A DNA stretch of 64,000 nt from Nanobdellota archaeon (GTDB lineage Archaea > Nanobdellota > Nanobdellia > SCGC-AAA011-G17 > JACPIM01). The position numbers and the translations under genes are program-made. The stretch covers positions 75,091 through 139,090 of the forward strand of contig JBBSWN010000010.1 in assembly GCA_038046265.1 (NCBI GenBank). The letters are read 5' to 3'. This document shows, piece after piece, positions 1,606-60,386 of the stretch. The notes beneath the pieces are model-generated. The model saw only the letters and a program-made list of their open reading frames with translations, made no database searches and had not been told where the DNA came from. Every line of letters starts with the position of its first letter. Position 1 is the stretch's first letter.

Positions 1606-1638
1606 CCCTTTTAGAAAAAGTGTTTACGGAAAACGACT
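1606..1638 (-). repeat. Recurrent upstream motif, copy upstream of pfdA
   Basis: Plus-strand text CCCTTTTAGAAAAAGTGTTTACGGAAAACGAC. Confidence 0.5.
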
Positions 1639-2308
1639 ATTTCTTGGCTCCTTTTTTAGTTTTTTCTGCTTTTGCTTTTTTTGGCTTTGTTTTTTTAGGC
1701 TCTTTTTTTACCTCTTTCTTTGGAACTTCTTTTATTTGAACTTTTTCTTCCTTTTTTAATTCTTTTTTCTCAGGAAGAGCTTTTAGCTTTTTCTTTTTTT
1801 CCTTAACTTCATAACCAAGAGCTTTTAACTCACGCTTTATTGTTTCTGTTGATTCATTTTTTTTAATATCTAATTTTTTATCCAAAGTTTTTAAGTGAAG
1901 AACATTGCATTTTCTTCTTTTTAACTGGCCGTCTATCAAGACAAAATTTTCATCTAATTTATCTATAATAACACATACTGAACCTGCTTCTCTTCCTGCT
2001 GTTTTTACACATAGTTGACCAAGTTCTAAAGGCAGTTCTTTTAGGTTTTTGAATTTTTCAATTATTTTTTCTCTAGAACATTTTGAGCACAAGTTTCCTC
2101 CAAAAGGCCTGGAAACTGTTTTTTGCGAGTATGGAAGATTTCTGAAGACAAACGGTCTTTCTCTTGGTATTCCTTTTAAATCATGACCACAAGAACCGCA
2201 TTTTGCTATTGACGGCTTTCTTTTTATGTAATGAACTGCTAAATTATTTCCAGGTGTTCTTACCTGGATTCTTCTTAAGCTTCTTGTTGCCTGAGGTTGA
2301 AATGCCAT
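1637..2308 (-). CDS. rpl34e-rpl14e: In-frame fusion of ribosomal proteins L34e (N-terminal) and L14e (C-terminal) with a lysine-rich tail
   Basis: The N-terminus MAFQPQATRSLRRIQVRTPG...CGSCGH...CSKCSRE is the L34e zinc ribbon. Residues from about 95 (LGQLCVKTAGREAGSVCVIIDKLDENFVLIDGQLKRRKCNVLHLKTL) are the L14e KOW fold. No stop and no in-frame ATG/GTG/TTG separates the two parts (the junction codons are CTA AAA GAA CTG CCT TTA GAA CTT GGT CAA). A roughly 55-aa K/E-rich tail follows. Confidence 0.7.
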   Translation of the reverse strand: MAFQPQATRSLRRIQVRTPGNNLAVHYIKRKPSIAKCGSCGHDLKGIPRERPFVFRNLPYSQKTVSRPFGGNLCSKCSREKIIEKFKNLKELPLELGQLCVKTAGREAGSVCVIIDKLDENFVLIDGQLKRRKCNVLHLKTLDKKLDIKKNESTETIKRELKALGYEVKEKKKKLKALPEKKELKKEEKVQIKEVPKKEVKKEPKKTKPKKAKAEKTKKGAKK

Positions 2309-2309
2309 T

Positions 2310-2768
2310 TTAGTGTATTTTTAATAATTTTCTTAAGGCTATGTTAAAGATTATTGAAAACAAGATATATGAACCGAGCCATCCCAAGCTTATGCCGAAT
2401 GGCAATGTCAGCAATTTTACTCCTGGAGGAAAAGCTTGCCTTAACCAACCAAAGATAAACAACAAAGGAAGCAAAGTTACCAATGTTGCTGGAAGCGAGT
2501 GCTGTAAGTATTTTAAACTTGTTTCCATTGATCTTTTTTGTATTTCTATTAGTTTCTGGGGGTCATTTTTAAACTTTTGCATTTCTTTTTTAAAATATTC
2601 TGTGTCTTCTTTCAAGGATTTCATTGCATGCTGGTTTGTAAAAAATTTCATAGCCAGGTTTACTATTAAAGTTAAGATAAATGAGATTATAATAATGTTC
2701 CAAGGATTTCCTAAGGAAATTATTGGTCCGAACAAGAAATTAAAGAAACTTTCTAATGCCATTTTCAC
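2310..2768 (-). CDS. DUF106 / Oxa1-superfamily membrane insertase-like protein
   Basis: 152 aa with 3 TM segments and a central charged coiled region. It sits in the conserved position next to secY. Confidence 0.55.
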   Translation of the reverse strand: MKMALESFFNFLFGPIISLGNPWNIIIISFILTLIVNLAMKFFTNQHAMKSLKEDTEYFKKEMQKFKNDPQKLIEIQKRSMETSLKYLQHSLPATLVTLLPLLFIFGWLRQAFPPGVKLLTLPFGISLGWLGSYILFSIIFNIALRKLLKIH

Positions 2769-4165
2769 TCCATCATTTTTCTGAAAGCGGGATTCATGTC
2801 TGCCATGTGCTGCTTACTGATATCTTCATATAATCTGTATATAATCATTACTGTCAGCAAGATTCCTGTTCCACTTGACAATGCTCCGAGCAAGTCTGCT
2901 GTTGCTGCCAACAACCCAACTGCTACTGCTCCCATTACAGTTAAAGGAGAAATGTATCTTTCTAATAATCTTTCAACAACTCTAGGGTCTCTTCTAAAAC
3001 CAGGAACTTGAAGACCAGAATTAATTATTTGTTTTGCCTGGGAGGATGCATCCATTCCAGATGTCTGGACCCAGAAAACTGAAAATATTATAGAACCAAT
3101 TACAAAAGAAAGTATGTAAACCAAGGATTTAAGTATTAAAATTGGATGGAAACTGCCACCTAAAATTTCTGCTGGCAGATTAGGAGCAAAAAGCCAGGCA
3201 ACTAGGCCAGAAACTGGAACATTGCCTGCAAATGTACCTAACAATGGAATGCCTTTGCTTTCTAATAATCTTGCCCATAATTGAATATTTGCAAACAAAG
3301 CAGCTATTAATATAACTGGAATATTTGATGTGTAAATGAATTTTAAAGGCCATCTTATGCCATGACCTCTGATTCTTCCAAAGCTTAATGGAATTTCCAC
3401 TTTCATAGATTGAGCATATGTTGCTATAAGGAAAATTAAAATTGTGAATACAATTAACAAGGCTGCTAGAAAAGCTTCTCTAGGATTTCTTCCTATTAAG
3501 GATAACAAGAAAACCCATAACTGGCCGACTGGACTTTCACCTGTGCCAAATGCAAATGTTCCTGCTCTTGTTAAAGGAGAGAAAATTCTTATAAAAATCT
3601 GGGAAGAAACACCAGCTGCTATAAACAATGAAATACCAGAACCAAAACCCCATTTATTTAAGACTTCATCCATGAACAAGACCACCATGCCACCAACAAA
3701 CAACTGGAATATTAATATTAATTGAAGATAAAAGAATGTTGATTGAAGCAAATTTTGAGCAGGAGCAAGACCACCTAAAAGCACGTAAACTATAGCTTCA
3801 AAAATAATGAAGAATACTGCTGCTATTTTTTGGACACCCTGGAATTTTGTCCTGCCTTCTTTTGTTGTTGTGTCAAATTTCAATATTTCAGAACCTACCA
3901 ACAACTGGAGAACTATGGATGCTGTAACTATCGGGCCAATACCCAAAGATAAAATGCTGCCAAAGCTTGCCCCCAACAATATTGACAAGGATTCAAATTG
4001 AGATAATGCGTTTTGACCAAGACCATACAATGGAACAACACTAAGAATATAGAAGGCTGCTAAAATAGTTAAAGTCCACTTTAACTTAATATTGAAAGAA
4101 AGGTGTTTTTCATCTGGACCTTTTACTTCTGGAAGCTTCCTTATCCAATTGTCGAGAATACTCAT
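2765..4165 (-). CDS. secY: Preprotein translocase subunit SecY
   Basis: 466 aa with 10 TM segments. It ends the ribosomal operon after L15. Confidence 0.9.
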   Translation of the reverse strand: MSILDNWIRKLPEVKGPDEKHLSFNIKLKWTLTILAAFYILSVVPLYGLGQNALSQFESLSILLGASFGSILSLGIGPIVTASIVLQLLVGSEILKFDTTTKEGRTKFQGVQKIAAVFFIIFEAIVYVLLGGLAPAQNLLQSTFFYLQLILIFQLFVGGMVVLFMDEVLNKWGFGSGISLFIAAGVSSQIFIRIFSPLTRAGTFAFGTGESPVGQLWVFLLSLIGRNPREAFLAALLIVFTILIFLIATYAQSMKVEIPLSFGRIRGHGIRWPLKFIYTSNIPVILIAALFANIQLWARLLESKGIPLLGTFAGNVPVSGLVAWLFAPNLPAEILGGSFHPILILKSLVYILSFVIGSIIFSVFWVQTSGMDASSQAKQIINSGLQVPGFRRDPRVVERLLERYISPLTVMGAVAVGLLAATADLLGALSSGTGILLTVMIIYRLYEDISKQHMADMNPAFRKMME

Positions 4166-4572
4166 TGTTCTAAAACTTGTCCACCTGCTTTTTCTATTTT
4201 TTCTTTTGCGCTTTCTGAAAATTTAGGCACTATTACAGTAATTTTCTTGTTTATATTTCCTTTGCCTAATAGTTTGTTATAACCTAGGTTTAATAAATTT
4301 ATTTTGTCTTCCTTGAATTTATTTAAGTCTTGAACATTAATTGTTTTTATTTTTAACAAGACTTTTTGAGGTCTTTTAAAGCCAGTTTTTCCAAAGTAAG
4401 CGTGGCCAAATTGCTTTAAGATCATGGTTTTTCTATGGTCAGATCTTTTACCTGTGCCAGACATTCCATGGCCGCCTCGATTTCCTGCTTTTCTATGCTT
4501 TTTCTTACTACCCCAGCCATATGTATAGCTTCCTTTCTGCCTTGAATTTTTCTTTCTTTTGTTTACTGGCAT
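4162..4572 (-). CDS. rpl15: 50S ribosomal protein L15 (uL15)
   Basis: Basic, glycine-rich N-terminus (GHGMSGTGKR) in the conserved position. Confidence 0.85.
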   Translation of the reverse strand: MPVNKRKKNSRQKGSYTYGWGSKKKHRKAGNRGGHGMSGTGKRSDHRKTMILKQFGHAYFGKTGFKRPQKVLLKIKTINVQDLNKFKEDKINLLNLGYNKLLGKGNINKKITVIVPKFSESAKEKIEKAGGQVLEQ

Positions 4573-4585
4573 GATCTTTTTAAAA

Positions 4586-4640
4586 AAAGCTTTACCAAAA
4601 ATAAGAACTAACCCTTTAACAAAGCGTTAACGGAAAGATT
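4586..4640 (-). repeat. Recurrent upstream motif, copy upstream of rpl15 (element order differs)
   Basis: AAAGCTTTACCAAAAA ... ACCCTTTAACAAAGCGTTAACGGAAAG. Confidence 0.4.
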
Positions 4641-4669
4641 CTTATCAACTCCGATGAACTTTTTTCCTC

Positions 4670-5146
4670 CTAAATCATTTTTTGAATTAAATCATTTATT
4701 TTTTCTTTTCTATAGCCTAATGAACCGCCTAATGAATATGGTTTTTTTGTCCCTGATTTTTCAAAACCACCTTTTGGCGGGCATAATTTGAAAAAATTTT
4801 TTAAACCAGGAATATCCTTGAATTCTTTTTTTGAATTTAAGAACTGCTCTGAAAATTCGTCTAATGATAATTTTGTTTTGTCTTTGACATAATTTTCTGA
4901 GAATTTTTCTTTTTTTGTGATTTTACCTCTTTTAACTAACAATAATTTTAAAGTTTCTTTGTTAATTTCACCCCATGTGACAAAGTCATTTATTTTCTGG
5001 ATTATGCTAGCATAATTTTGAGAAGAAGAAACTATGGTGCATGTAAATTTATTATATAATCTTAATAATTTAAATGTGTCCTTAATTTCCTTTTTTATGT
5101 TTACTTGTCCAGCAAGCCTGACAATAGCTAATCTCTTGTTTTCCAT
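4670..5146 (-). CDS. rpl30: 50S ribosomal protein L30 (uL30)
   Basis: Lies between S5 and L15. The N-terminal ferredoxin-like domain is MENKRLAIVRLAGQVN. Confidence 0.8.
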   Translation of the reverse strand: MENKRLAIVRLAGQVNIKKEIKDTFKLLRLYNKFTCTIVSSSQNYASIIQKINDFVTWGEINKETLKLLLVKRGKITKKEKFSENYVKDKTKLSLDEFSEQFLNSKKEFKDIPGLKNFFKLCPPKGGFEKSGTKKPYSLGGSLGYRKEKINDLIQKMI

Positions 5147-5148
5147 TT

Positions 5149-5961
5149 TTATGATATGACCTCTGGAATTTCTTCTCTTACTTTATGCTGGGTTTTTGTT
5201 GAACTTAATTTTTTCAAAGCATCGAAACAAGATGAAATAAGATTTAGTTTTGTTCTTGACTGGCCGAAGGTTCTTGAATAAACATCTTTAATGCCTGCAA
5301 AATTTAAAAGCTTGGCACATTCTTTTTCAACACAAAGGCCTGTTCCTTTAGGAGCTGGCAAAAGCTCAATTTCAACTGAACTTGTTTTTGCACTTACTGC
5401 AAAAGGTATAGAATGAGAACCTTGGCAACTGCATTCCCAGGAGCCACAACCATTTTTAATTTTCATCAAATTTAACTTTGCTTTTCTGACTGCTTTTTCC
5501 CTTGCCGGGACTGTTTCTTTTGCCTTGCCATAACCAAAACCAACATAACCTTCCTTGTTTCCGACAATTGCTAAAGCTGCGAACTTTGGCTTGTTTCCTT
5601 CTGCTGTTTTTTTCTGGGTCTGCCTCCAGATTGATCTTTTTCCACCGCCAAATTTTCCCTTGCTCTGACCAACCAGGATAAAATCTGTTTCTAAATTAGG
5701 GATTAAAGTATCAACAATTTGAGCTTCAAGGATTCTTAATCCTTTTCCAAGAATTTCATCTATATTAGTTATCTTCCCTTCTTTTACAAGCTTTCCCAAA
5801 GTTGTTTTTGGAGACCAGCCTGAGACTTCTTCTTTTATAACTACACCTGCTGGTAGTTCAGCTTCAGGCAGCGCTTCAATTGACAAAGCAACTTCTGTGC
5901 TTTCAAGCTTGCTTTCTTCTTGTTCTGGAAGTCTTTTCTTCTCCATTGGAACCCTTTTCAT
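5149..5961 (-). CDS. rps5: 30S ribosomal protein S5 (uS5) with an acidic N-terminal extension of about 48 aa
   Basis: It has the dsRBD and S5 C-terminal domain (GKFGGGKRSIWRQ...VGNKEGYVGFGYGKAKE). The canonical start WSPKTTLGKLV is at residue 49. Confidence 0.85.
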   Translation of the reverse strand: MKRVPMEKKRLPEQEESKLESTEVALSIEALPEAELPAGVVIKEEVSGWSPKTTLGKLVKEGKITNIDEILGKGLRILEAQIVDTLIPNLETDFILVGQSKGKFGGGKRSIWRQTQKKTAEGNKPKFAALAIVGNKEGYVGFGYGKAKETVPAREKAVRKAKLNLMKIKNGCGSWECSCQGSHSIPFAVSAKTSSVEIELLPAPKGTGLCVEKECAKLLNFAGIKDVYSRTFGQSRTKLNLISSCFDALKKLSSTKTQHKVREEIPEVIS

Positions 5962-6016
5962 AATGCGTTCACGGAAAACCGGGAACCTTTTTTGGCAAAA
6001 AGCTTCACCAAAAAAA
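5951..6016 (-). repeat. Recurrent upstream motif, copy upstream of and overlapping the rps5 start
   Basis: ACCCTTTTCAT|AATGCGTTCACGGAAAACCGG ... AAAAGCTTCACCAAAAAAA. Confidence 0.5.
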
Positions 6017-6033
6017 CAGGTGAAACCTTGCTT

Positions 6034-6546
6034 TTACTTTAATATTTTTGCCTTAATTTCATTTATATGCTTTCCTAAATCAGGAATCTTGTACTGTTTG
6101 TTTGATTTTTCATAATGATTTATTATGTGTTTTCCTTCTAATCTATCTTGGGAAGGAAGTATTTCTTTTTTATGGGGAATGTTTAAACCAGCATCAATTG
6201 AACCTTTTAATACTGCATACAATCTTGAGCCTTTTACGCTTCTATAAAGGCCTATGTCCAAAATAACTTTTTTTATTCCTTTTGCCAGAGCTTTTTTTCC
6301 AACCAAGATACCAAGAAGATATGCTGCTGGAATATTTTTTTTAGATGACTTAAGGCTGTATTTTTTCTCCAGTTCTTTTGTAGATGCTGACAAAAGTATT
6401 TTGTCACCATTTTCATGAAATTCAATTATTTGAGCTAAAGTGTTTTTTAAGGATTTTCTTACTACTAGCCTTGGTAATCTAGATTTAACTAAGGTTAGCC
6501 TTTTTCTATAATCTGTTCTTCCGTGAATTTTTCTGTTGAACTGCAT
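6034..6546 (-). CDS. rpl18: 50S ribosomal protein L18 (uL18)
   Basis: Begins MQFNRKIHGRTDYRKRL. Conserved position. Confidence 0.8.
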   Translation of the reverse strand: MQFNRKIHGRTDYRKRLTLVKSRLPRLVVRKSLKNTLAQIIEFHENGDKILLSASTKELEKKYSLKSSKKNIPAAYLLGILVGKKALAKGIKKVILDIGLYRSVKGSRLYAVLKGSIDAGLNIPHKKEILPSQDRLEGKHIINHYEKSNKQYKIPDLGKHINEIKAKILK

Positions 6547-6547
6547 T

Positions 6548-8502: not shown

Positions 8503-8503
8503 T

Positions 8504-8734
8504 TTAGCTGTATTTTTTGAATCCTATGTCTCTCGCTATTTCCCTAAAGCACTGCCTGCATAATTTTAGGCCATATTTGCTTATATGGGCTCCAGTTCTG
8601 CCGCATCTCCTGCATTTATGATTCATGTCTCCAACTGACCTTTTTTTTGGAGCATTGTGCTTTATGAACTTGTTTAATTTAGCTGGCTTGTTTTTCAGCT
8701 GCTTAAAAACTTTTTTGTAATTGCTTGTTGTCAT
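8504..8734 (-). CDS. rps14: 30S ribosomal protein S14 type Z (uS14), zinc ribbon
   Basis: Contains the CRRCGR...CRQC zinc motif. Confidence 0.8.
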
Positions 8735-11281: not shown

Positions 11282-11283
11282 GT

Positions 11284-11592: not shown

Positions 11593-11810
11593 TTCTTTTT
11601 AGCAACCTCCACAGACTGAGTCTGGTTTTTTTGATTCATTAATGTCAATATTCTTGCAATTGTTCTTCTTGTATTTCTTATTAAAGCGGGCTTTTCAAGT
11701 GTTGTTCCTCTGGCCCTTTTAGCATTTAAGACAATTAATTCTTTTTTAAGTTCAACTAGTTTTGACTTAAGGTCTTCATTTTTCATTTCTCTTAATTCAT
11801 TTATTTTCAT
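11589..11810 (-). CDS. rpl29: 50S ribosomal protein L29 (uL29)
   Basis: Begins [25 protein letters not shown]. Confidence 0.8.
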
Positions 11811-12645
11811 TTTCTATTTTTTCTTCTTTTGGAGCTTGTTCAGAAGCTTCACCAATAACGGGAGTTTCTTCAATTGGTTCTTCTTTAAGCTCTTCTGTTT
11901 TTTCTTCAACTTTTTCTTTTGTTTTTCTTGTTCTTTTTTTCTTTGAAGCTTCTTTGAGAGCCTCACCAGGAACTTCTTCCTTTGATTCAGTTTTTAGTTC
12001 TATTTTTGCTTCTGCTTGTTCCAATGGTTTTTCAACTAACACATTTTCTTTATTTAAAACCAGGATTTTATCTGGGAGTACTACGTCTGGTGTCATGATA
12101 CTTACTTTTATTCCTATTATTCCGGATTTTAATTTCGCCTGGGCAACTGCTTTTTTTACTTTATCTGATGCTATATAGCCAGATTTTTTCAAGTGGCCTG
12201 CTTTAAATCTCCATGATCTTGCTCTTGCGCTAGGGACTTTTCCTGAAATAACTATTTCTGCTCCGAGGGCACCTGAATTGATAATGTCCTGCAAAGTTTT
12301 GTAGCCTACTGACTTAAATCTTTTTGAACCAAATCTTACTAAAGTTGAACTAATTCTGTCTGCAACGAAGTTTGCATCAAGCATGGGATTTTGAATTTCA
12401 CCAATTTCAATCTGGGGGTTTTCCATGCTGAATTTTTTCTTTAAAACATTTGTTAATCTTCTGATATTTTCCCCTTTTTTTCCAACAACTAAGCCGGGCC
12501 TTGTAGTAAAGATAACAACTTTTTCTCCTAAAGGAGTTCTTTGAACTTCTATATGAGAAAATCCTGTCCCAGTAAATTCTGCCTTGACATATTCATGGAT
12601 CTGGAATTCCTTTATTTTCTGACTAACAAATTGTCTTTCAATCAT
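11797..12645 (-). CDS. rps3: 30S ribosomal protein S3 (uS3) with a K/E-rich C-terminal tail
   Basis: KH domain and S3 C-terminal domain, followed by an extension of about 70 aa (KEEVPGEALKEASKKKRTRK...). Confidence 0.85.
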   Translation of the reverse strand: MIERQFVSQKIKEFQIHEYVKAEFTGTGFSHIEVQRTPLGEKVVIFTTRPGLVVGKKGENIRRLTNVLKKKFSMENPQIEIGEIQNPMLDANFVADRISSTLVRFGSKRFKSVGYKTLQDIINSGALGAEIVISGKVPSARARSWRFKAGHLKKSGYIASDKVKKAVAQAKLKSGIIGIKVSIMTPDVVLPDKILVLNKENVLVEKPLEQAEAKIELKTESKEEVPGEALKEASKKKRTRKTKEKVEEKTEELKEEPIEETPVIGEASEQAPKEEKIENENK

Positions 12646-13157
12646 TTTTTAACTTCCTTTGAACCTTCTTTAGAAGAAGCTTCACCAAGACTTTTCTTTG
12701 GACTTTCTTTAGAAGCACTTGGAACTTTTTTTGAATCTGGTTTTTTCTGTTTTTCAAAAGCATAAATTTCAACATTTGTTCTTTTTTGTCTTCTTCCCCT
12801 ATGCCTGCTATAATGCCATGACAATGATGCCTGGTTTGTAATTGCCTTGTCAATCTGCAATGATTCTGAGTTAAGGCCCTTGTTTCTTGCATTGCCTTCC
12901 AATGTTTTTAACAAATTGAGGAAGTGCAGAGATGCTTTTTTTGGATAAAATCCAGGACCTAAATGGCCCTTTTTATGGCCTCTCTTATGATAAAATCTTT
13001 TTAATTTTATTACTGCTTTTTCTTCTATGACTTTGTGCAATGTGTCTTTAATTTTAGAGACTTCCTTGCCTTTCATGAACATGCAGAGCTCTATTGCGTG
13101 CTTTGTTGAAATAGGCAAATTAAATCCAGATGCTTTTACTAAGTCTTTTTCTGCCAT
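12642..13157 (-). CDS. rpl22: 50S ribosomal protein L22 (uL22) with an S/K-rich tail
   Basis: Begins MAEKDLVKASGFNLPISTKHAIELC. Confidence 0.85.
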   Translation of the reverse strand: MAEKDLVKASGFNLPISTKHAIELCMFMKGKEVSKIKDTLHKVIEEKAVIKLKRFYHKRGHKKGHLGPGFYPKKASLHFLNLLKTLEGNARNKGLNSESLQIDKAITNQASLSWHYSRHRGRRQKRTNVEIYAFEKQKKPDSKKVPSASKESPKKSLGEASSKEGSKEVKK

Positions 13158-13163
13158 TTTAAT

Positions 13164-16721: not shown

Positions 16722-16752
16722 AAAGTTTAATCCAAAACGACTAAACTTGGTT
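16722..16752 (-). repeat. Degenerate copy of the motif upstream of rpl3 (operon leader)
   Basis: AAAAAGTTTAATCCAAAACGACTAAACTTGG aligns with the pfdA copy AAAAAGTGTTTACGGAAAACGACTATTTCTTGG. Confidence 0.35.
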
Positions 16753-16829
16753 TATATTTCTTTCTAGAATCAGCGACTAATTATCGATACAGTAAGGGTA
16801 CTTTTATGAGAAAAATTTGGTTTATAAAG

Positions 16830-17681
16830 CTATTGGTTTTTTTGCATGTTTTCTTTTAATTTTAGAATTGTTTCTTCTATTCTTTTTGTTATATCTGGCA
16901 GTTTAAGGCCTGTTTTTTCTAATTTAGTTGTATCTATAATAGCATCTACTCTTTTTACTTTTGATTTTTTGTCTAATTCTTCTTTTGGTTTTATGTTAAT
17001 TTCCATTTTATCTTTGAGATTATCTTTTAACATTAGCGCTATTTTATGTGGTGAAATAGTTCCTGAATTAGTAATATTAAATATTCCTGTTTGATTTTTG
17101 TCTATTAGATGCTTAGTTGCCAGTAATAAATCATCTGCAATTGTCATGCTATTTGGATTTGTATGAAATTCTTTATAATTCAGCATTTTATGAAGTATAT
17201 TTCTTGGGTGAACTTTAGAACTTAATAATAGCCTTGGTCTTAATATTAATACTTTTAGTCCTTTTTTTATTTTGTCTTGCAGTAACTGGTCTGCCCATGT
17301 TTTTGTCCACGAATAAAATGCAATTGGTTTCGGCAGGTCTGTTTCTTTGAATATTGGCTTACCGTCAATGCTTTCAAATATACAACCAGAAGAAATATGG
17401 ATTAAGAAAATATTATTTTTAAGACAGACTTTTGCTACATTATCTGCACCTAAGGTATTAACTTTGAATGTTTCTAATCTATTTTCTTCACACCAGTCTG
17501 TATTTGTTTTTGCTGCTGTGTTAATTACTATATTTGGCTTGAAATTGTCAACAGCTTTCTGAACTTCTTCTTCGTTTGTTATATCTACTTGCGCTATTTC
17601 AGATTTATAGTTGTTATTATTAAAGAAATCTTTGTATAAGTTCCCTAATTGCCCATTTCCAAAGATAAGAATTTTGTGCAT
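16830..17681 (-). CDS. NAD(P)-dependent sugar reductase, dTDP-4-dehydrorhamnose reductase (RmlD)-like
   Basis: Begins MHKILIFGNGQLGN, with AAKTNTDWCEEN and YSWTKTWADQ in the relative positions of the RmlD motifs. Confidence 0.55.
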   Translation of the reverse strand: MHKILIFGNGQLGNLYKDFFNNNNYKSEIAQVDITNEEEVQKAVDNFKPNIVINTAAKTNTDWCEENRLETFKVNTLGADNVAKVCLKNNIFLIHISSGCIFESIDGKPIFKETDLPKPIAFYSWTKTWADQLLQDKIKKGLKVLILRPRLLLSSKVHPRNILHKMLNYKEFHTNPNSMTIADDLLLATKHLIDKNQTGIFNITNSGTISPHKIALMLKDNLKDKMEINIKPKEELDKKSKVKRVDAIIDTTKLEKTGLKLPDITKRIEETILKLKENMQKNQ

Positions 17682-23798: not shown

Positions 23799-25187
23799 TT
23801 AGGCTGCGCTTGATAATTTAATTCCATACAACTGATTGTCTTTATAGCCTCTGAATTTATTATAAACAAGTTTGTAAAGATTTTTTATAGGTTTATTATC
23901 TGGCATGTTAATTAAGACTTTTAACAAACCAGTTTTGTATATAACTGGGTAAGCTGCTGCTACTGCAAACCATTTTTGTAGATGCTCTACTTGTTTTTTA
24001 TTTTTAAGTTTTACTATCGTGGTTTCAAAGAATTTAGGACCAATGTCATTAAAGTCACCTTCTAAAAGACCACGAGATATTGCATATTCTGTTAAAGGCA
24101 AGCCAGGATAAGGCTGGAATATTGAGCACCAAGCATATAAAGGCTTACATTTTATATTCATTTTTAATGTTTCTATGTCTGTTTCTAAACTTGATTCTGG
24201 CAAACCTAAAATATTCTGCAACATGATTTTTATTCCATATTTGTGCAATAAATCTGATGCTTTGTAGACTGTTTCCTTGTCCATTTCTCTTTTAATTACA
24301 ACATTTCTTATATAATCGTCTGCTGCTTCCAAAGCCATGTGAACTGAGTAACAGCCTGCTTCTTTTAATAAACGAGCTGTGTTTTCATCTACAGTGTTCG
24401 GCCTTACGTGACAATGGAAAGGCAAATTAATTTCTTTTTTATATTTTTCTGAGAATTCTTTTAACCAAGGCTTGTTCATTACAAAAATATCATCTTGAAA
24501 ATAAACAAATTTACCGCCATGTTTTTCAAATACTTGTTTTATTTCAGCAATTAAATTATCTACTGATCTCCATCTAACCCACCTTCCTTTTCCACCATAG
24601 ATTTTATCTATTGATGCATTGAAACAGTATTGACATTTATAGGCACAACCCCTGCAAGCTATGAAATGTCTTATTGGTTCATCTTTCCAGATTTTATGTT
24701 CATATGCAACATCTCTATCTGGAAAAGGCAATGTGTCAAGAGATTCATTTAGATTTCTAATTTCATTTTTGTAAATTTTTCCATCTTTTTTTATCCAAAG
24801 ATTTTGAATATTTGTGTAATCTTTTCCTTCGTCATAATTATTTGCCAATTCTGCTATTGCTTCCTCACATTCACCTTGCGCTACAATGTCCATTCCTTCT
24901 TCTTCTATTACTTGTGGGTGGAAAGTTGGATGTGAGCCACCCATTAAAGTCAAGAAATTATGATGTTGTTTTAATTCATTTGTTATTCTTAGAAATTCGG
25001 TTTGACCACCAGTCATTACAGAACCAGCTACAACATCGGGTTTAAAGTCTTGGACTACTTTTTTTAAATCGTCTTGGCCAATAACTGCTATTTTTGTCTG
25101 GTGGTTGTATTTTTTTAGAATTGCACTTATGTATAATAAACCTAAGGGTTCTACAGGATGCTTCCATGCTAAAAATAGAAATTTCAT
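23799..25187 (-). CDS. B12-binding radical SAM enzyme (probable methyltransferase class B)
   Basis: N-terminal cobalamin-binding Rossmann region (GGSHPTFHP), followed by the CAYKCQYC CxxxCxxC motif. Confidence 0.75.
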   Translation of the reverse strand: MKFLFLAWKHPVEPLGLLYISAILKKYNHQTKIAVIGQDDLKKVVQDFKPDVVAGSVMTGGQTEFLRITNELKQHHNFLTLMGGSHPTFHPQVIEEEGMDIVAQGECEEAIAELANNYDEGKDYTNIQNLWIKKDGKIYKNEIRNLNESLDTLPFPDRDVAYEHKIWKDEPIRHFIACRGCAYKCQYCFNASIDKIYGGKGRWVRWRSVDNLIAEIKQVFEKHGGKFVYFQDDIFVMNKPWLKEFSEKYKKEINLPFHCHVRPNTVDENTARLLKEAGCYSVHMALEAADDYIRNVVIKREMDKETVYKASDLLHKYGIKIMLQNILGLPESSLETDIETLKMNIKCKPLYAWCSIFQPYPGLPLTEYAISRGLLEGDFNDIGPKFFETTIVKLKNKKQVEHLQKWFAVAAAYPVIYKTGLLKVLINMPDNKPIKNLYKLVYNKFRGYKDNQLYGIKLSSAA

Positions 25188-29979: not shown

Positions 29980-29985
29980 AATGAG

Positions 29986-30032
29986 CCCTTTTCAGAAAAG
30001 CGTTCACGAAAAACCGGCGCTTCACCAAAAAG
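29986..30032 (-). repeat. Recurrent upstream motif, copy upstream of the GT9-GT2 gene
   Basis: CCCTTTTCAGAAAAGCGTTCACGAAAAACCGGCGCTTCACCAAAAAG. Confidence 0.5.
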
Positions 30033-36845: not shown

Positions 36846-37982
36846 ATGACTTTAAACCAGTTTTCTAATGCTGAAAGAATGGCTTATCAGGTAATTAGGA
36901 AAATACCAGCAAGAATAAAGAATCCTTTAGTTGCAAATATCAATAGATTTAGAGTAAAGAGAGTGAAGAATTTTCAAACACCACAAAATTTGATTTTTTA
37001 TGTTACTGATTACTGCAATGCAAGATGCTCTCATTGTTTTTACTGGAAGAATTTGAACAAGAGACAAGATGAAATGACATTAGATCAAATAAAGACAATG
37101 ATAAAATCATTGAAAACACAATTAAACATGCTGGTAATCACTGGTGGGGAGCCTTTTATCAGAAAAGATCTTTATGAGATATGCTCTGCTTTTTACCAGA
37201 TAAACAAGACAAAAAGAATTAACATTGTGACTAATGGATTATTAGGAACTAAAATTCTTGATACAGTAACAAGACTAGTTACTGAAAATCCTGATAAAAG
37301 ACTGACTATTATTGTTTCTTTAGATGGTTTAGAAGACACGCACAATATGATAAGAAGAGTTCCTAATATATGGAAAAAGGACATTGAATTAATTGATGAT
37401 TTAAAGAAAATTGCTGAACAGCATTCTAACTTGTCATTGTTTGTAAATTTGACTATGACAAAGACAAATATACATGAAGTAAAGCCTTTAAGCAAATTTG
37501 TTAAAGATGAATTAAAGATTAATTTTAAGGTAAATGTTTTAAGGACAGGAAAAAATTATTATCAAGTTCCAAAAGAAATTTTAATGGATTATGAGCCTGA
37601 GATTTCCAACCAGCCAAGTGTTGAGGAATTAGAAGAAGTTTATGAATGGATGGACAAAGAGACTGAGGATTTACCAGGAAAAGTTGAGGTTTTGAAACTA
37701 AAGCACTCAATTGACATGATAAAGCATGAGAAGCCAACTTTAAAATGTTTGGCTGGGTATAATGACGGGGTGGTTTTTCCAACTGGGAAAGTTGCTATAT
37801 GCGAGCCTACAAAATCTTTTGCAGATTTAAAAGATTATAATTTTGACTTTAACAAATTATGGAATTCTAAGGAAGCCCAGTTAATGAGACAGCAGACTAG
37901 CGAGTGTTTTTGTCTGCAATCCTGCAACTTGCTTAATTCTATGAAATATGACACAGCTACACTTAAAAACCTGCTAAAGTAA
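36846..37982 (+). CDS. Radical SAM enzyme with a C-terminal SPASM/twitch Cys cluster
   Basis: CNARCSHC CxxxCxxC motif plus a C-terminal Cys-rich region (CEPT...CFCLQSC). GGAGGG lies upstream. Confidence 0.7.
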   Translation: MTLNQFSNAERMAYQVIRKIPARIKNPLVANINRFRVKRVKNFQTPQNLIFYVTDYCNARCSHCFYWKNLNKRQDEMTLDQIKTMIKSLKTQLNMLVITGGEPFIRKDLYEICSAFYQINKTKRINIVTNGLLGTKILDTVTRLVTENPDKRLTIIVSLDGLEDTHNMIRRVPNIWKKDIELIDDLKKIAEQHSNLSLFVNLTMTKTNIHEVKPLSKFVKDELKINFKVNVLRTGKNYYQVPKEILMDYEPEISNQPSVEELEEVYEWMDKETEDLPGKVEVLKLKHSIDMIKHEKPTLKCLAGYNDGVVFPTGKVAICEPTKSFADLKDYNFDFNKLWNSKEAQLMRQQTSECFCLQSCNLLNSMKYDTATLKNLLK

Positions 37983-38038
37983 GCTTTTTGAGAAAAAGCT
38001 TAAGCAAAAAGCATAAGAAAGCCTTTAGGAAAAATAAA

Positions 38039-51386: not shown

Positions 51387-51462
51387 GCAACCCGAAAACT
51401 ATATAAATATAGTACAATGAATTAACAATAGTTTATGATTATTATGTTTAAATGAGGGCAAT

Positions 51463-53031: not shown

Positions 53032-53093
53032 TTATTTTATAAATAAATATTTAAATGATTAATTATAGGAGAATTTAATTTAAAGGTGAAAAG

Positions 53094-54530: not shown

Positions 54531-54574
54531 ATTAAAACGAGCAATTTAAAAATACAAAGATAGAGTTTTTTTAT

Positions 54575-55474: not shown

Positions 55475-57219
55475 ATTTTTAACCTGTAAATTCTAATTCC
55501 TTCGTTTTCTATTTGGGCCAAGAAAATCTTTTGCTTGGTGGTTATTATATAATGCATTTTTTTCAGGTCTTGATCTCCAAAGAACAAGTTATGGTTGAGC
55601 CAAAAACCTGTTAATGAAACATACTGAGCTGGGTATTGGTTTTCTTTTATAACTGAATAAGTTGAAGAAACATTTATTAAAGGATTGCCCTCAATTTCAA
55701 ACAAGATGTTTTTTATTTTGTCATGATCAACATCATTTAAGTAAAGGCCAACCTGGCTTTGAGGGCTCTCATATATTTTTTTAGCCTGGTGGTTGTTTAT
55801 TGTGAAATTCAATGCATTTACTATGATAAAAACTGTTAAGACAAGGAAAACTATTTTCTTGAATTTTAATTTGTTTATTAAAAAGAAACTAGCTATAGGG
55901 AGAATTATGAAAAAAGCCATCATAATAAAGAATATTGGAAAATTAAATAGATGGTTTATTGAAAGTTCCTTGTTTATGATATAGTTTAAAAGTATGTTTA
56001 ATGCTCCAATGTGAGTTAAGGAAAGGTTGTTAATGGGTGTTAAATTTGAAAATATAAGCTGAGTAGATATTATAAAAAAAGGGATGCTAAAGACAATTAT
56101 TTTTTTCAACTTATTTTTTTGCTCAGAAGTATAGTTATTTAAGCCAATTACGCCGAGGATTAAAACTAAAGGTGAAAGAATATCCATGTACCTAAAAATT
56201 GGTCTTCCTGTGTAAAACTTGAAAAAAGACGGCAAAGAAGAATCTGATGGGCCGAGAGCATTATTTGAAAGAACAAGAGTAAAACTTAAAATTGAAACTA
56301 GTGCGACAATTGCAAAACAAAATAATTTTCTGCTGTCTTTTATATTTTTAAATGCGAAAAAGGACAAGAAGAAAAATATCAGGCCAGACGATATTGACAA
56401 GGCGACAAGGTGCATAATTATCCAGTTAACTAAAGAAATTATGTAAGGAAATAAGCCGCCATGTTTTGAAGGTGTTAGAAATGAGTCTAGGTTGTCTTTT
56501 GCAGTGTCTTCAACAATGCCTGCTATGCTCGGGCCAAAGTGAATATAATTTCTAATTAACCAAGGAGAGATTATTAAAAGAAGAACAAAGATGCTGACGA
56601 TAATGTTCTTGCAGTTTAGTTTTTCCTTTAATGTCAGTCTTTTTATTAAAATTGAGACAAAGAAAATCGGGATTAATATTAAGCCCAAGTTTTTTGTCAG
56701 GAATGACAAGGAAATAAAAACAGATGCAAGAACATTGTTTTTTAGAGTGTTTTCCTTTAAGGACTTGTAAATAAAGTAAATTGAAGAAAGGAATAATGGG
56801 AAAAAAAGATTTTCAGCCAAGATATAGCTAGAGAAAGAGAAAAATACAGGAAGGAAAGCTGTTAAAACTACAAAATAATTTCTTTTATCTTCTTCCAGTA
56901 ATTCTTTAGAAAAGAAATATGCAGGGATTATCACTAAAGTTGAGATGAATGAATTTATTATTTTCATTAAAAAGTATATTATTTCCATATTTTTTGCAAG
57001 GTAAGCTATGGATAAAATTACAGGGTAAAGTGGCGGGTAAAAAGGAGATGGTATATTTTCTGACAAGACAAAATTATGAGTAAAGAAGAAACTTCTTGCT
57101 AATTTTGAATAAATATATTCATCCCAAAATCCTGTTGGGGAGGAAATAAAATAAGACAAGATAATCTTAATTACTACGATTATTGAGTAAATATAGACAA
57201 GTTTTTTTGTAGGGCTCAT
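55471..57219 (-). CDS. GT-C family membrane glycosyltransferase (PMT/ArnT-like)
   Basis: WDEYIYSKLARS acidic first-loop motif followed by more than 10 TM helices. Confidence 0.5.
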   Translation of the reverse strand: MSPTKKLVYIYSIIVVIKIILSYFISSPTGFWDEYIYSKLARSFFFTHNFVLSENIPSPFYPPLYPVILSIAYLAKNMEIIYFLMKIINSFISTLVIIPAYFFSKELLEEDKRNYFVVLTAFLPVFFSFSSYILAENLFFPLFLSSIYFIYKSLKENTLKNNVLASVFISLSFLTKNLGLILIPIFFVSILIKRLTLKEKLNCKNIIVSIFVLLLIISPWLIRNYIHFGPSIAGIVEDTAKDNLDSFLTPSKHGGLFPYIISLVNWIIMHLVALSISSGLIFFFLSFFAFKNIKDSRKLFCFAIVALVSILSFTLVLSNNALGPSDSSLPSFFKFYTGRPIFRYMDILSPLVLILGVIGLNNYTSEQKNKLKKIIVFSIPFFIISTQLIFSNLTPINNLSLTHIGALNILLNYIINKELSINHLFNFPIFFIMMAFFIILPIASFFLINKLKFKKIVFLVLTVFIIVNALNFTINNHQAKKIYESPQSQVGLYLNDVDHDKIKNILFEIEGNPLINVSSTYSVIKENQYPAQYVSLTGFWLNHNLFFGDQDLKKMHYIITTKQKIFLAQIENEGIRIYRLKI

Positions 57220-57277
57220 TTTTTTTAAGTTTTACAAGGAAAACTTTATAATTACTTCTTTTTAAATATTTTCTGTT

Positions 57278-58306
57278 ATGAGAAATGAGGTTTATATTGA
57301 GATAATTAATGAAGGAATAAACAAGATATTAGGATTTCAGGATACTAGGAAGGGGGCTTTGACAGAGGGGTGTTTTTTTTATCCTTACTGGAGAAATAAA
57401 AGAGAGAGTTACGTAAATTCCAGGTGGCAGGAAGCTGTATTGAGCTTAAGCTGGTATTTTAACAAGTTCAGCAATGAGGAAATTTGGGAAAGGATTGTAA
57501 AGGGAATTGATTTTTGGAGTAGATTACAGCAGAACAATGGAAGTTTTCCAGAGTATTCAAGACATGACAGGAGCTTTTCTGCCACTGCTTTTTCCACCTT
57601 GGCTATTGTAAATTCATTAAATTTGATTAATTATTCAAAGGAAAAGTGGCTTGAAAGGATAAAAAAAAGCTGTGATTATTTAATTAAAAATGATGATTTT
57701 GTCTTCATTAGAAATGAACTTGCTGCTTCTTTAGTATTATTGAAAGCTGGAGAATATTTACATGAGCCTAATTATTTAAATGAAAGCGAGAAGAAATTTG
57801 ATTTTGTCTTGAAAAAACAAAATGAGAAAGGCTATTTTAGCGAGGAAGGGGTTTTTGACTTAAGCTACAATACCATGATACTTGAGTTACTAGGAAATTA
57901 TTATTTAAGCACAAATGACAGAAAAATCTTGGAAAGCGCAGACAAGTTTATCAACTTTTTTCATAATTTGGATTTAAAGACTTACAGGAAATACAAAAAA
58001 GCAAACTGGGTTATTATCGGCGGGTTCGAAATTTTTTCAAATGAAGTAAAAAACGGAAAAGAAGCGCTTGTCAAGGCTTTAAATAATTTTAATTTTCATC
58101 ATTTAGATTATGACAATAATTTTTGCACTGATTTATACAGGTTGTGTTATGCTTATGACAATTTTAAAGAAGATTTAGAGCATCTTGAATTAAAATCTGA
58201 GCTAAATGTGAATACTTATTATTCTGGAAGACAATCCAAAATCTTGAATATTTTAAGGCCTTTTGGAATACATAATTTTATGAGAATAAAGCAGAAACTT
58301 TTTTGA
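57278..58306 (+). CDS. Hypothetical protein, possibly alpha/alpha-toroid repeat
   Basis: Contains QQNNGSFPEY, a QW-like repeat. Confidence 0.3.
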   Translation: MRNEVYIEIINEGINKILGFQDTRKGALTEGCFFYPYWRNKRESYVNSRWQEAVLSLSWYFNKFSNEEIWERIVKGIDFWSRLQQNNGSFPEYSRHDRSFSATAFSTLAIVNSLNLINYSKEKWLERIKKSCDYLIKNDDFVFIRNELAASLVLLKAGEYLHEPNYLNESEKKFDFVLKKQNEKGYFSEEGVFDLSYNTMILELLGNYYLSTNDRKILESADKFINFFHNLDLKTYRKYKKANWVIIGGFEIFSNEVKNGKEALVKALNNFNFHHLDYDNNFCTDLYRLCYAYDNFKEDLEHLELKSELNVNTYYSGRQSKILNILRPFGIHNFMRIKQKLF

Positions 58307-58365
58307 AAAAGTTTCATTAAAAATAAGAACCTAGTTTCTTATCATCTCCTAGGATTATATGAAAA

Positions 58366-58818
58366 TTATTTTAGTTTTTCAATTTCTAAAACTATTTTGT
58401 TAAATGCTTCTGGAGTGTTTGCACAAGACTCTGATCTTTTTGTTATTTCTTTGTTTAAATAAACTCTTAACAATATAATCGGGCAGTTTTCCCCAGCTCC
58501 TTCCATATAAGGAGGGATTGAATTAAATTCGTCACTATCAACTAAGGATTTAAGGTAATTTAAGTCTGCTTCTAACAAAGTGTTTTCATTTTTAGTTTCT
58601 TCCTTATTTTTATTTATTAAAGAAGTTATGTATTTTCCTGTTGAATAAATTTGATATTTATTTGTTACACCGCTTTCTTGTGTTTTTTCAAGGGAAATAA
58701 TTAATTTTTCCTGTTCAACCGGCGGCTGATAAACTGGAGCTGGCTCTTGTTTTGAACATCCTGAAATAACTAACAAAGATAGTGTTAGTAAAATGAATAT
58801 ATATTTTGAAATTTTCAT
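58366..58818 (-). CDS. Putative lipoprotein
   Basis: Signal peptide ending in the lipobox-like ISGCS. Confidence 0.4.
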   Translation of the reverse strand: MKISKYIFILLTLSLLVISGCSKQEPAPVYQPPVEQEKLIISLEKTQESGVTNKYQIYSTGKYITSLINKNKEETKNENTLLEADLNYLKSLVDSDEFNSIPPYMEGAGENCPIILLRVYLNKEITKRSESCANTPEAFNKIVLEIEKLK

Positions 58819-58884
58819 ATGTTTTTTGTTATTAGTTAGTTTAAAAAGGTTTCGGGAAAGGCTAGAAATATTCTTCGTAGATTT

Positions 58885-60324
58885 TTATTCAGGGGGGCGC
58901 CCTGATCCTCCTGCTAATAAGGCTGCTGCTCCGAGAACGTATTTTCTTAAGATAGGCCAATTATCTATGTTTTTTATTTTTCTGAAAATTACTTTTGGCC
59001 TGAAATAGAAACTTTTTAATGCCAATCTCTGCATTGCTTTTAATTCTTCTGATGTTCTGCCATGAGTTGTCCAAGGAAGCTGGTCGTCTGAGAAACCACC
59101 CCAGGTTTGATAATTATCCCAGTCTGCCTGGCTTGATGTTAAAATGCCGTGTTCTTTTGCATCTTTATACAACTGGGTGCCTGGATATGGAATTGTTACT
59201 GTGAACTGGGCCCAGTCTGGATCTAATTCTTTTGCAAAATTGATCGTTGCCATGTCATCATCTTTTGATGCTCCTGGCAGACCAATCATAAAGTAACCTC
59301 TTGTTTCTAATCCAGCTTCTCTAGCCCACTTGAAAGCATTTCTTATTTGATCGAGGGTTGCATCTTTATGAATAGTATCAATTAATTTTTGAGTTCCGCC
59401 TTCAACACCAAAATGAATACCACCACAACCAGCTGACTTCATTTTTTTTAATAATTCTAAATCAACTAATCCTGCTCTTGTAATGCAGTCCCAAATCATT
59501 TTTTCATTTAACTTTTCTTTTATTATTGCATCACATAATTCTATTGTTCTTTTTTTGCTTAATGTAAAGGTATCATCTCTTATTAGAATTTCTTTTGCTC
59601 CAAAATCATTAACTAACATTTTCATTTCTTCTACGACTCTTGGAACTGAGTGCATTCTATATCCGGTATTTGCTGTTGAACAAAATGTACATCTATAAGG
59701 ACATCCTCTTGTTGTTACCATAGTATAAGCTGGAAGTCTTTTGTAATAAGAAACAGAAGGCCTGTATAAATTCATTTTTATTAACTTTCTGTCTGGTATT
59801 GGAAAAAAATCTAAATCCTGGATTTTCGGTTTTGGTTCATTTTTAATTGTAATTCCATTTTCTTTGTAAACAATGCCTTTTACATTATTTAACGGGATAT
59901 TTTTTTCAAAAGCATCCAGAATTTCCTTAAAAGTAACTTCTGCTTCACCAATTGTAACAATATCAATGCATTCTTCCTGCGCTGTTTCCATTGGCCTTAC
60001 TGATGCATGAGAACCACCAACAATTGTTTTAATATTTGGATTTACTTTTTTAGTAATTTTACAAACTCCCAATGATTGAGAAAACATTGATGTAAGCATT
60101 GCAACACCAACAACATCATAATTATTATTTTTTATATGAAGCTCTAATTCTTCTGTAGAAATTCCTTCTGCCTCACAATCTAGGATTTCAGCTTTGTGGC
60201 CATTATGATTGAGAAAAGTAGCGATATATAATAGGCTTAATGGTTCAGATTTAGGACCTACTTTTTTACCTAATTTTTTCCAATAGCCGTTGTCTAATGA
60301 CGGCATTACTAATAGTGCTTTCAT
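58885..60324 (-). CDS. B12-binding radical SAM enzyme
   Basis: Cobalamin-binding N-terminal domain, followed by CPYRCTFC. Confidence 0.75.
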   Translation of the reverse strand: MKALLVMPSLDNGYWKKLGKKVGPKSEPLSLLYIATFLNHNGHKAEILDCEAEGISTEELELHIKNNNYDVVGVAMLTSMFSQSLGVCKITKKVNPNIKTIVGGSHASVRPMETAQEECIDIVTIGEAEVTFKEILDAFEKNIPLNNVKGIVYKENGITIKNEPKPKIQDLDFFPIPDRKLIKMNLYRPSVSYYKRLPAYTMVTTRGCPYRCTFCSTANTGYRMHSVPRVVEEMKMLVNDFGAKEILIRDDTFTLSKKRTIELCDAIIKEKLNEKMIWDCITRAGLVDLELLKKMKSAGCGGIHFGVEGGTQKLIDTIHKDATLDQIRNAFKWAREAGLETRGYFMIGLPGASKDDDMATINFAKELDPDWAQFTVTIPYPGTQLYKDAKEHGILTSSQADWDNYQTWGGFSDDQLPWTTHGRTSEELKAMQRLALKSFYFRPKVIFRKIKNIDNWPILRKYVLGAAALLAGGSGRPPE

Positions 60325-60337
60325 TTTAACCTTTTTT

Positions 60338-60386
60338 ACCCTTTTTACGAAAAGCGTTCACGTAAAAACGCAAAGCTTAACCAAAG
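60338..60386 (-). repeat. Recurrent upstream motif, copy upstream of the B12-rSAM gene 58885..60324
   Basis: ACCCTTTTTACGAAAAGCGTTCACGTAAAAACGCAAAGCTTAACCAAAG. Confidence 0.5.

Follow-up and report, generated by a model that had tools for sequence, protein, structure and literature searches.

A probable family of small palindromic interspersed repeats in a Woesearchaeota genome

Locus and search strategy

The window analyzed here is a 64,000-nucleotide stretch of contig JBBSWN010000010.1 (NCBI GenBank assembly GCA_038046265.1), and our subject is a hairpin-forming unit of about 32 nucleotides (nt) that recurs along it, at gene junctions and in one case within a gene. The host is a Woesearchaeota (DPANN) archaeon, and the window, with a GC content of 31.5%, holds an archaeal ribosomal-protein cluster (L3 to L15, SecY, L34e, and prefoldin alpha) followed by glycan-synthesis genes. 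The nearest relatives by ribosomal protein S5 are Candidatus Woesearchaeota/Nanoarchaeota metagenome-assembled genomes (MAGs), designated L001, L002, and L003 (85%, 82%, and 74% identity, respectively), and contigs from Hainich groundwater metagenomes encode proteins identical to those of the window. Two further relatives, L205 and L207, were compared at the site referred to below as site d, where the orthologous proteins are 88% and 71% identical to that of the window. The genome itself could be followed beyond the window for ~9 kb on the left side (L256) and for ~2 kb on the right.

Copies in the window were scored with a covariance model, R1, which was trained on 41 units, none of them from the window, and was run over the window with filters off. 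Metagenomes were searched with the pattern TTTTNSGTRAAN{0,1}GCTTTTN{3,5}AAAAG, which matched at least 119 loci; among 80 Woesearchaeota loci, matches occurred in L001 and L002 only. Literature searches, made with literal sequences and for Woesearchaeota/DPANN promoter motifs, returned no description of the hairpin unit.

Anatomy of the unit

Read on the minus strand, the unit begins with a T-run, continues with S-S-G-T, and ends in a 10-bp hairpin with a free loop of 3–5 nt. It comes in two subtypes, a CGT-type (CGTRAACGC) of the form TTTTCCGT-RAACGCTTTT-loop-AAAAGGGTTY and a GGT-type (GGTRAAGC) of the form TTTTTGGT-RAAGCTTTTT-loop-AAAAAGsTTY, and each has one conserved non-Watson–Crick position, G.G or G.A. 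Units are arranged singly, in tandem, or as truncated-plus-full composites of 42–70 nt. The hairpin is real, and its stem clearly covaries: 20 of the 41 aligned units have AU as their closing pair, 17 have GC, and one has GU, the second stem pair is CG in 22 and UA in 18, and none of 500 shuffles reached the observed covariation score, with slid controls lower as well. Further compensated stem variants are CTTCTT/AAGAAG and GAGGC/GGCTC. Single-sequence RNA folds of the units are not more stable than those of shuffled sequences (z -0.4 to -1.4).

A sequence-only reading of the window, from which this analysis started, had described a CTTTT-N3-AAAAG inverted repeat. That repeat exists, and it had been drawn too short, for the stem comprises the 10 bp RAA-s-GC-TTTT / AAAA-G-s-GTTY. 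The same reading had treated an extension, CTTCACCAAAAA, as a block of its own; this proved to be a second unit of the sister subtype, present in full at the S5 and L15 sites (36-nt period) and in truncated form at sites d and e.

Copies in the window

The recurrence of the motif was partly confirmed. Its long consensus has two matches in the window against none expected in 100 shuffles, its 15-mer core has seven against 1.6 expected, and R1 recovers 10 matches at E<0.05, all of them on the minus strand (Table 1). The four copies reported as clear (1606–1638, 5951–6016, 29986–30032, and 60338–60386) were found in place, as was one reported as rearranged (4586–4640), which consists of two R1 matches, 4570–4601 and 4606–4637. 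A supposedly degenerate copy at 16722–16752 was not recovered by R1 and is at best a decayed remnant, and a weak one near 63314–63343 corresponds to a borderline match at 63321–63353 whose E-value of 0.34 lies above the threshold. Three copies, at 37977–38010, 12658–12691, and 58291–58323, had been overlooked. Units occupy about one junction per 5–6 kb.

Table 1. Hairpin units and composites in the window, with their R1 matches and immediate surroundings
Copy	Position (strand)	Sequence	R1 match	Setting
Unit a, CGT-type	1600..1633 (-)	TTTTCCGT AAACACTTTT tct AAAAGGGTTT	42.2 bits, E 2.3e-6	Between L34e stop (1637) and prefoldin-alpha ATG (1600); hairpin end 2 nt before ATG
Unit b2, GGT-type	4570..4601 (-)	TTTTTGGT AAAGCTTTTT tt AAAAAGATC	E 0.0098	Flush with L15 ATG (4572)
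Unit b1, CGT-type, shortened stem	4606..4637 (-)	CTTTCCGT TAACGCTTTG TTAAAGGGTTA	E 0.03	Downstream of L30 stop (4670); b1+b2 form a 70-nt composite
Unit c2, CGT-type	5946..5978 (-)	TTTTCCGT GAACGCATTA tg AAAAGGGTTC	E 0.0093	Hairpin end 2 nt before S5 ATG (5946)
Unit c1, GGT-type	5980..6014 (-)	TTTTTGGT GAAGCTTTTT gcca AAAAAGGTTC	37.6 bits, E 1.9e-5	Upstream of c2 in tandem (36-nt period), after L18 stop (6034)
L22 coding copy	12658..12691 (-)	CTTGGT GAAGCTTCTT cta AAGAAGGTTC	E 1.6e-4	C-terminal tail of L22
Composite d	29980..30031 (-)	Truncated GGT-type TTTTTGGTGAAGCG (30017–30031) + full CGT-type (29980–30013)	38.7 bits, E 1.1e-5	Entire gap from Fer4/DUF4346 gene stop (30034) to GT9-GT2 start (29979)
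Unit h, perfect 10-bp palindrome	37977..38010 (-)	TTTTTGCT TAAGCTTTTT ctc AAAAAGCTTA	30.6 bits, E 4.6e-4	Flanked by plus-strand genes (radical SAM, 36846..37982; GT1, from ~38039); reverse-oriented to both
Weak relative, membership uncertain	58291..58323 (-)	TTTTTAAT GAAACTTTTT ca AAAAAGTTTC	21.1 bits, E 0.036	Convergent junction: overlaps 3' end of 57278..58306 (+), downstream of 58366..58818 (-)
Composite e	60334..60386 (-)	Truncated GGT-type TTTGGTTAAGCTTTGCG + CGT-type (60334–60367)	28 bits, E 1.5e-3	Intergenic region between divergent genes; 13 nt downstream follow a separate AAGGT Shine–Dalgarno-like box and B12/radical-SAM ATG (60324)
Unit g, weak, borderline	63321..63353 (-)	TTTTTGTT TAGGCTTTTT ct AAAAGCCTA	16.1 bits, E 0.34	Followed by ordinary promoter (GAAGCTTTAAAAAG) 24 nt before ATG of GT2 gene 62399..63283

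Strand, orientation, and distance to start codons

Units cluster on one DNA strand at several loci. The adjacent 9 kb in L256 adds four minus-strand units to the 10 of the window, and the units share a strand in L083 (6/6), L118 (4/4), and L139 (3/3). Relative to genes, both orientations occur, with reverse examples in unit h, at position 993 of L118, in L189, and in L004; in unit h and in the L118 case, the element stays on its DNA strand and does not follow the strand of the gene. The sequence-only reading had held that the motif always lies before minus-strand genes. The minus-strand part of this claim stands, and a position before a minus-strand gene is not general, because copies also lie between plus-strand genes, inside L22, and at a convergent junction.

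Where a unit is oriented with the gene that follows, its hairpin in most cases ends 0–3 nt before the start codon. This was seen for a, b2, and c2 in the window, for four copies in L083, and for two each in L118 and L256. The 3' arm then places AGGG or AGGT 5–7 nt before the ATG (-11 to -7), where the other Shine–Dalgarno-like boxes of the genome sit, and a translation-related side effect of this arm is possible. The spacers in these operons measure only 0–10 nt, so any insertion that is tolerated there will abut both neighboring genes.

Turnover between relatives and copying within the genome

The occupancy of orthologous junctions differs from one close relative to the next. At the site of unit a, L001 carries a CGT-type unit and L002 a GGT-type unit. 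Before S5, both subtypes are found in the window, the GGT-type alone in L001, and the CGT-type alone in L002; the corresponding regions examined in more distant relatives (L003–L020) hold no units. The L30/L15 junction has two units in the window and one GGT-type unit in L002, whereas in L001 it is empty, with a 1-nt spacer. Upstream of L1, a GGT-type unit in the window's genome (L256) takes the place of the CGT-type unit found in L001, and the junction of unit h carries 2–3 tandem units in L205. At site d, L205 and L207 have a 6-nt spacer and the window is 48 nt longer, so composite d is an insertion.

Copying within a genome is indicated by the 70-nt composite b1+b2, a near-identical version of which precedes an unlinked ATP-cone gene of the same genome (L256, 14322–14391). 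By eye, the two versions differ at 3–4 positions in ~70 nt, and to judge from this similarity the recurrence is a recent copy-paste. The form of composite e, AAGCTTTGCGG-TTTTCCGTGAAYGC, is present twice in L118. Taken together, these comparisons show gains, losses, duplications, and swaps of units at gene junctions over short evolutionary time.

Copies inside coding sequences

Units are also found in frame within genes. The copy in the C-terminal tail of L22 is translated as LGEASSKEGS and has CTTCTT/AAGAAG in place of the T-runs, with the hairpin retained. In the protein alignment, this segment is missing from L207. Its nucleotide variant recurs in L205, within the tails of L4 and S3, and in several places in L002, with L207 again lacking these segments, and the L22 tails of L205 and L002 hold copies as well. 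Among these paralogous tail copies, synonymous positions are constant and the loop alone varies, which implies conservation or spread at the level of nucleotides rather than of the peptide. In L004, copies within ribosomal-protein tails are reverse-oriented. The Lys/Glu-rich S3 tail contains additional, decayed segments of the GEAS..KE type.

Other archaeal contigs provide further cases. In one Dph2, a unit accounts for an 18-residue in-frame insert relative to PDB 6bxm, and the units found in a P-type ATPase, a GT4 protein, and a protein of 434 aa share the reading NPFxKSV(H/Y)GK. Two genes for an IS200-like Y1 transposase (TnpA), 68% identical to each other, are interrupted at two different positions by a composite of 42–45 nt; the insertions are independent, add 39 nt net each, and lack a target-site duplication. 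The insertion points lie after SSK and after SCYH, and the interrupted gene copies are multicopy. Unit-bearing tnpA genes were seen in archaeal contigs of 39%–45% GC (L103, 2171–2746; L185, 3819–4340; also L099, L113, L131, L174, and L184).

Distribution beyond the clade

Among the matches listed, CGT-type units occur in contigs of 26%–49% GC. Beyond what the search pattern demands, their leaders contain CC, their 3' arms contain GGTT, and they share the G.G mismatch as well as an R...Y covariation in which A goes with T in 21/26 and G with C in 12/20. Some unit-bearing contigs encode PGF-CTERM and CARDB neighbors or a Methanoperedens-like Dph2, gene content that suggests euryarchaeal hosts; the euryarchaeal-like contigs that encode PGF-CTERM have 38%–49% GC.

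We do not extend homology to two other groups of matches, both of the GGT-type pattern. One is a high-GC alphaproteobacterial REP-like family and the other a set of hairpins in giant-virus MAGs; in both, the shared bases are mostly imposed by the search pattern, and in the viral hairpins the stem register differs in addition. A connection with group II introns was also considered, on account of a domain V match in L174 ~1.6 kb from a unit, and was dropped: no intron open reading frame (ORF) or boundary could be tied to the unit, whose conserved flanks are the IS200-like tnpA gene.

Interpretation as an interspersed repeat

We consider it probable that the motif represents a proliferating family of very small palindromic repeats, similar in kind to the REP, RPE, and MJRE elements, rather than a shared regulatory switch. 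Of the options that the sequence-only reading had offered, a repeat of the MITE or REP type is thus favored, while operator, internal promoter, and translation hairpin lack support as the primary explanation. The units would spread as single-stranded DNA hairpins in a strand-specific manner, perhaps through a Y1/HUH enzyme (IS200- or RAYT-like) or through replication-coupled template switching. Between the cistrons of this compact genome, the copies retained would mostly be those whose hairpin stops ~2 nt short of the next ATG, in which case the 3' arm (AAAGGGTT or AAAGGTT) could supply a Shine–Dalgarno-like AGGG/AGGT in place of the native box that the insertion displaced. Effects on expression would then be a by-product, and not the cause, of the recurrence of the motif. 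The strand clustering fits strand-specific insertion (single-stranded, replication-coupled) as in IS200/IS605, a fit that, with two informative cases, is only suggestive.

Several observations weigh against this interpretation. Tblastn searches of the window and of the Woesearchaeota loci examined detected no transposase, and where filled and empty sites could be compared (site d and the two TnpA sites), neither a target-site duplication nor defined termini were apparent. At 32 nt, the unit falls below the size of any classical MITE. The clustering on one strand is confounded with gene orientation, and only unit h and the unit at L118 993 separate the two. Many copies keep a tight spacing of ~2 nt from hairpin to ATG, and junctions at ribosomal-protein, chaperone, and L1/L10 genes are preferred; selection for a role in translation or RNA processing could account for either feature just as well.

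We place the unit in the general kind of small palindromic interspersed repeats and outside any named family, because features specific to REP elements and to MITEs were not found in it. REP and BIME sequences of Proteobacteria owe their mobility to RAYT, which is a Y1/HUH transposase from the IS200/IS605 superfamily. Like the units, they are imperfect palindromes of ~30–35 nt whose 5' flank is conserved and single-stranded; they lie singly, as tandem pairs, or in clusters at intra-operon gene junctions, differ quickly from one relative to another, and have no target-site duplication. Some unit-bearing genomes also contain an IS200-like Y1 transposase. As a short multicopy palindrome (32 nt, a 10-bp stem with one mismatch, 10 matches in 64 kb plus four in 9 kb), the unit would pass for a REP. 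However, it has no GTAG/GTGG head (its foot reads TTTT(T)-SS-GT, and the stem opens with R), and it is not strictly extragenic, with copies in the L22, L4, and S3 tails, Dph2, the ATPase, GT4, and TnpA. No RAYT flanked by units was found in the window and the Woesearchaeota loci examined, and the TnpA genes seen elsewhere are interrupted by a unit instead of flanked by units. The present units also differ in being archaeal and in having A/T-rich stems with a conserved mismatch.

Rickettsia palindromic elements (RPE) are palindromic repeats of a reduced genome that lie between genes and are also fused in frame within conserved protein genes (PMC2229807, PMC10969869). The units described here are likewise both intergenic and in frame in conserved, unrelated proteins (Dph2, TnpA, the ATPase, GT4, and ribosomal-protein tails), but RPE measure 100–150 bp and are confined to Rickettsia, whereas the units measure 32–45 nt and occur in Woesearchaeota and euryarchaeal-like contigs. 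MJRE1–3 of Methanocaldococcus jannaschii, as summarized in PMC2229807 from Suyama et al. 2005, are mostly extragenic palindromes with a few frame-preserving coding copies. They offer an archaeal parallel by description and are much longer and from a different lineage. Correia/NEMIS elements and similar MITEs can incidentally supply promoters, processing sites, or terminators (PMC10969869), and resemble the units as small nonautonomous repeats directly upstream of genes. They differ in their terminal inverted repeats, TA duplications, and known parent insertion sequence (IS) family. In the units, the hairpin is the only inverted repeat, terminal inverted repeats with a target-site duplication are not seen, and no parent autonomous IS with the same ends was seen in ~95 kb of this genome plus close relatives.

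Other structures were compared and set aside. Integron attC sites carry R''/L''...L'/R' boxes (RYYYAAC...GTTRRRY) and extrahelical bases, span 55–140 nt, and lie at the 3' ends of cassettes; only AAC...GTT is common to them and to the unit, whose flanks are unlike RYYY/RRRY, which measures 26 nt from arm to arm, and which sits in a ribosomal-protein operon. The sequences of dif and ORB sites do not fit. A K-turn or box C/D reading of GTGAA fails on inspection at units a and e2 and in L002, where the required second GA is missing, and a bacterial-type intrinsic terminator would have its T-run after the hairpin, not before it. At gathering thresholds, Rfam found no match on any unit in 18 loci and only a tRNA in the window, and permissive scans gave only chance-level matches. 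The tRNA is a tRNA-Thr (CGU) on the plus strand at 63487–63559, the sole match of either Rfam or ARAGORN in the window.

Regulatory alternatives

The evidence does not bear out a regulatory function as the primary explanation. That the motif might simply be the generic promoter consensus of the genome can be dismissed, since ordinary promoters here differ in sequence and geometry: they consist of a B recognition element and TATA box (BRE/TATA) of the form GAAAnnTTTATAAA, 21–30 nt before the ATG, with cGAAAnnTTTATAAA-type boxes at most other genes of the window. They fit the geometry of an archaeal BRE/TATA, with an A/T-only 8-bp box behind a purine-rich BRE. The 3' end of the BRE/TATA lies either 21–23 nt before the ATG, the spacing of leaderless messages, or 28–30 nt before it, with a short leader that carries GGAGG or AGGTGA. 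Forward units flush with a start codon do not have this geometry, and some reverse or distant copies do. A more elaborate proposal is that the units punctuate transcription, with the T-runs terminating the upstream transcript and the palindrome RAAsGC-TTTT-N3-AAAA-GsGTTY serving as a BRE/TATA-like promoter in both directions. The two halves of the palindrome do each resemble the local promoter consensus; by hand count, the A/T core of reverse copies lies ~17–26 nt before a start codon (for instance, in L189), although what follows the L122 copy is an AAGGAG leader; the core of unit e2 is 21 nt before the ATG; unit g and the unit at L083 9474 are directly followed by ordinary promoters that resemble half-units; and the T-run 8-mer of forward flush copies is 23–26 nt from the ATG. 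In those same flush copies, however, the A/T core is only 9–12 nt from the ATG, so that a start 22–25 nt downstream would land inside the ORF. G or C is frequent in the loops (CTG, CGT, GCC, CGC), unlike in a TATA box, and TTTTCCGT and TTTTTGGT make poor TATA boxes. Runs of five or more T are not depleted from the sense strand of coding DNA (222 observed against ~99 expected) and are therefore unlikely to be strong terminators here, and copies exist within coding sequences. We regard punctuation of transcription as very unlikely to explain the family.

An unlikely origin, too, is selection for a cis-acting RNA hairpin that controls translation or mRNA processing in intercistronic or 5' untranslated regions, either by sequestering or presenting the AGGG/AGGT box of the 3' arm or by providing a cleavage site that releases near-leaderless cistrons in an otherwise leaderless organism. 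Such a function would suit hairpins that end 0–3 nt before the ATG in most forward copies, a 3'-arm box at the same distance as the other Shine–Dalgarno-like boxes of the genome, and a covarying stem. In composites, moreover, AAACGCTT has two alternative pairing partners, AAGCGTTT upstream and AAAAGGGTTT downstream, which gives two mutually exclusive hairpins, and most genes of the window have a TATA box 21–23 nt from the ATG, which implies leaderless mRNAs. But the folds are no more stable than those of shuffles, copies are reverse-oriented, at convergent junctions, and inside ORFs, sites are not kept among relatives at 71%–88% identity, and the downstream genes have no function in common. 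The reading thus leaves the distribution unexplained, though it is compatible with co-option of a mobile repeat. An operator through which a sequence-specific regulator co-regulates the ribosomal-protein and glycan genes as a regulon is almost certainly not the answer. The strong conservation of GTRAAsGC, the palindromic core, and the recurrence before several genes are what an operator would show. Against it stand the tandem arrays, the coding copies, the use of both orientations, the copies inside enzymes and a transposase of unrelated archaea, a conserved leader on one side only, and the lack of any regulator gene associated with the copies. Sites are also absent at the same genes in close relatives, and this lack of orthologous conservation by itself largely refutes the reading.

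Implications

If the motif is an interspersed repeat, it has consequences for how such genomes are understood and annotated. DPANN genomes are tiny and tightly packed and are usually thought to be poor in selfish DNA, and here a 32-nt repeat splits the conserved ribosomal-protein operon and adds length to ribosomal-protein tails, while in unrelated archaea it is found in frame within essential enzymes. The parallel with Rickettsia RPE suggests that elements of this kind may be a general feature of reduced genomes. Motif scans of MAGs can take such units for regulatory motifs, promoters, or small RNAs, and the strain-level insertions and deletions that they cause can mislead gene calling, for example by producing false N-terminal extensions. 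A bolder version, which we hold to be rather unlikely, casts the units as the archaeal equivalent of REP elements: single-stranded DNA hairpins that an IS200/RAYT-like Y1 enzyme moves with replication-strand specificity, spread horizontally between DPANN and euryarchaea, and co-opted in Woesearchaeota as “operon punctuation” that brings its own ribosome-binding box and lengthens ribosomal-protein tails. Were this strand-specific, Y1-transposase-linked version true, REP/RAYT-type biology would be extended to the Archaea.

Additional observations

The pattern search brought up other sequences that deserve mention. Alphaproteobacterial contigs and proviruses of 55%–70% GC contain a dispersed repeat of ~100 nt, TTGAAAAGTCAGG...ATTATAAAGG-TTTTTGGTGAAGCTTTTTCCAAAAAGCTTCAGAAGACGCCGCCTTTTTGAAAAAAGGCGGC (L086–L188, from assembly ERZ746981 and others, and the high-GC entries of L208–L255). 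It looks like a REP or terminator and has an 18-mer in common with the archaeal GGT-type unit, with homology unproven, and in this family a SAM-alpha riboswitch lies near a GGT-type match. Giant-virus MAGs of 21%–31% GC (L213–L254, L169, L172, and L126) carry intergenic TTTTTGGTAAAGCTTTTT-N3-AAAAAGCTTA hairpins, both in tandem (39-nt period) and dispersed. In L195 (2986 nt, 45% GC), which encodes a 593-aa protein that looks capsid-like by eye, three GGT-type units lie directly upstream of ORFs, two of them as a divergent pair. GGT-type units also lie directly after intron-containing tRNA genes or within their long inserts (L158, 1–250; L098, 7699–7851; L101, 3828–3946); L158 has in addition a duplicated tRNA 3' half, a layout reminiscent of an integration site.

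Some genes of the window are unusual in themselves. Long extensions are present on the ribosomal proteins S5 (5149–5946; ~100 aa at the N terminus), L34e (1637–2308; C terminus), and S3 (11797–12645; C terminus). The L30 gene is called as 158 aa plus a 97-nt gap in the window (4573–5146) and as 96 aa plus a 283-nt gap in a contig from another Hainich well (L257, 2205–2778), a strain-level frameshift or an assembly difference that lies beside the two-unit composite. The B12-binding radical SAM protein has 462 aa in the window (23799–25187) and in L205, and its orthologue in L207 (12159–14876) contains an intein (PF14890) within a 905-aa product. Upstream of L3, an ordinary BRE/TATA is followed by a leader of ~45 nt (ACCCTTACTGTATCGATAATTAGTCGCTGATTCTAGAAAGAGGA) that is kept in relatives at 71%–88% protein identity (window, 16740–16830 on the minus strand; L205, 16232–16345; L207, 15777–15878); it may be a ribosomal-protein operon leader or an autoregulatory site, and it is unrelated to the hairpin repeat.

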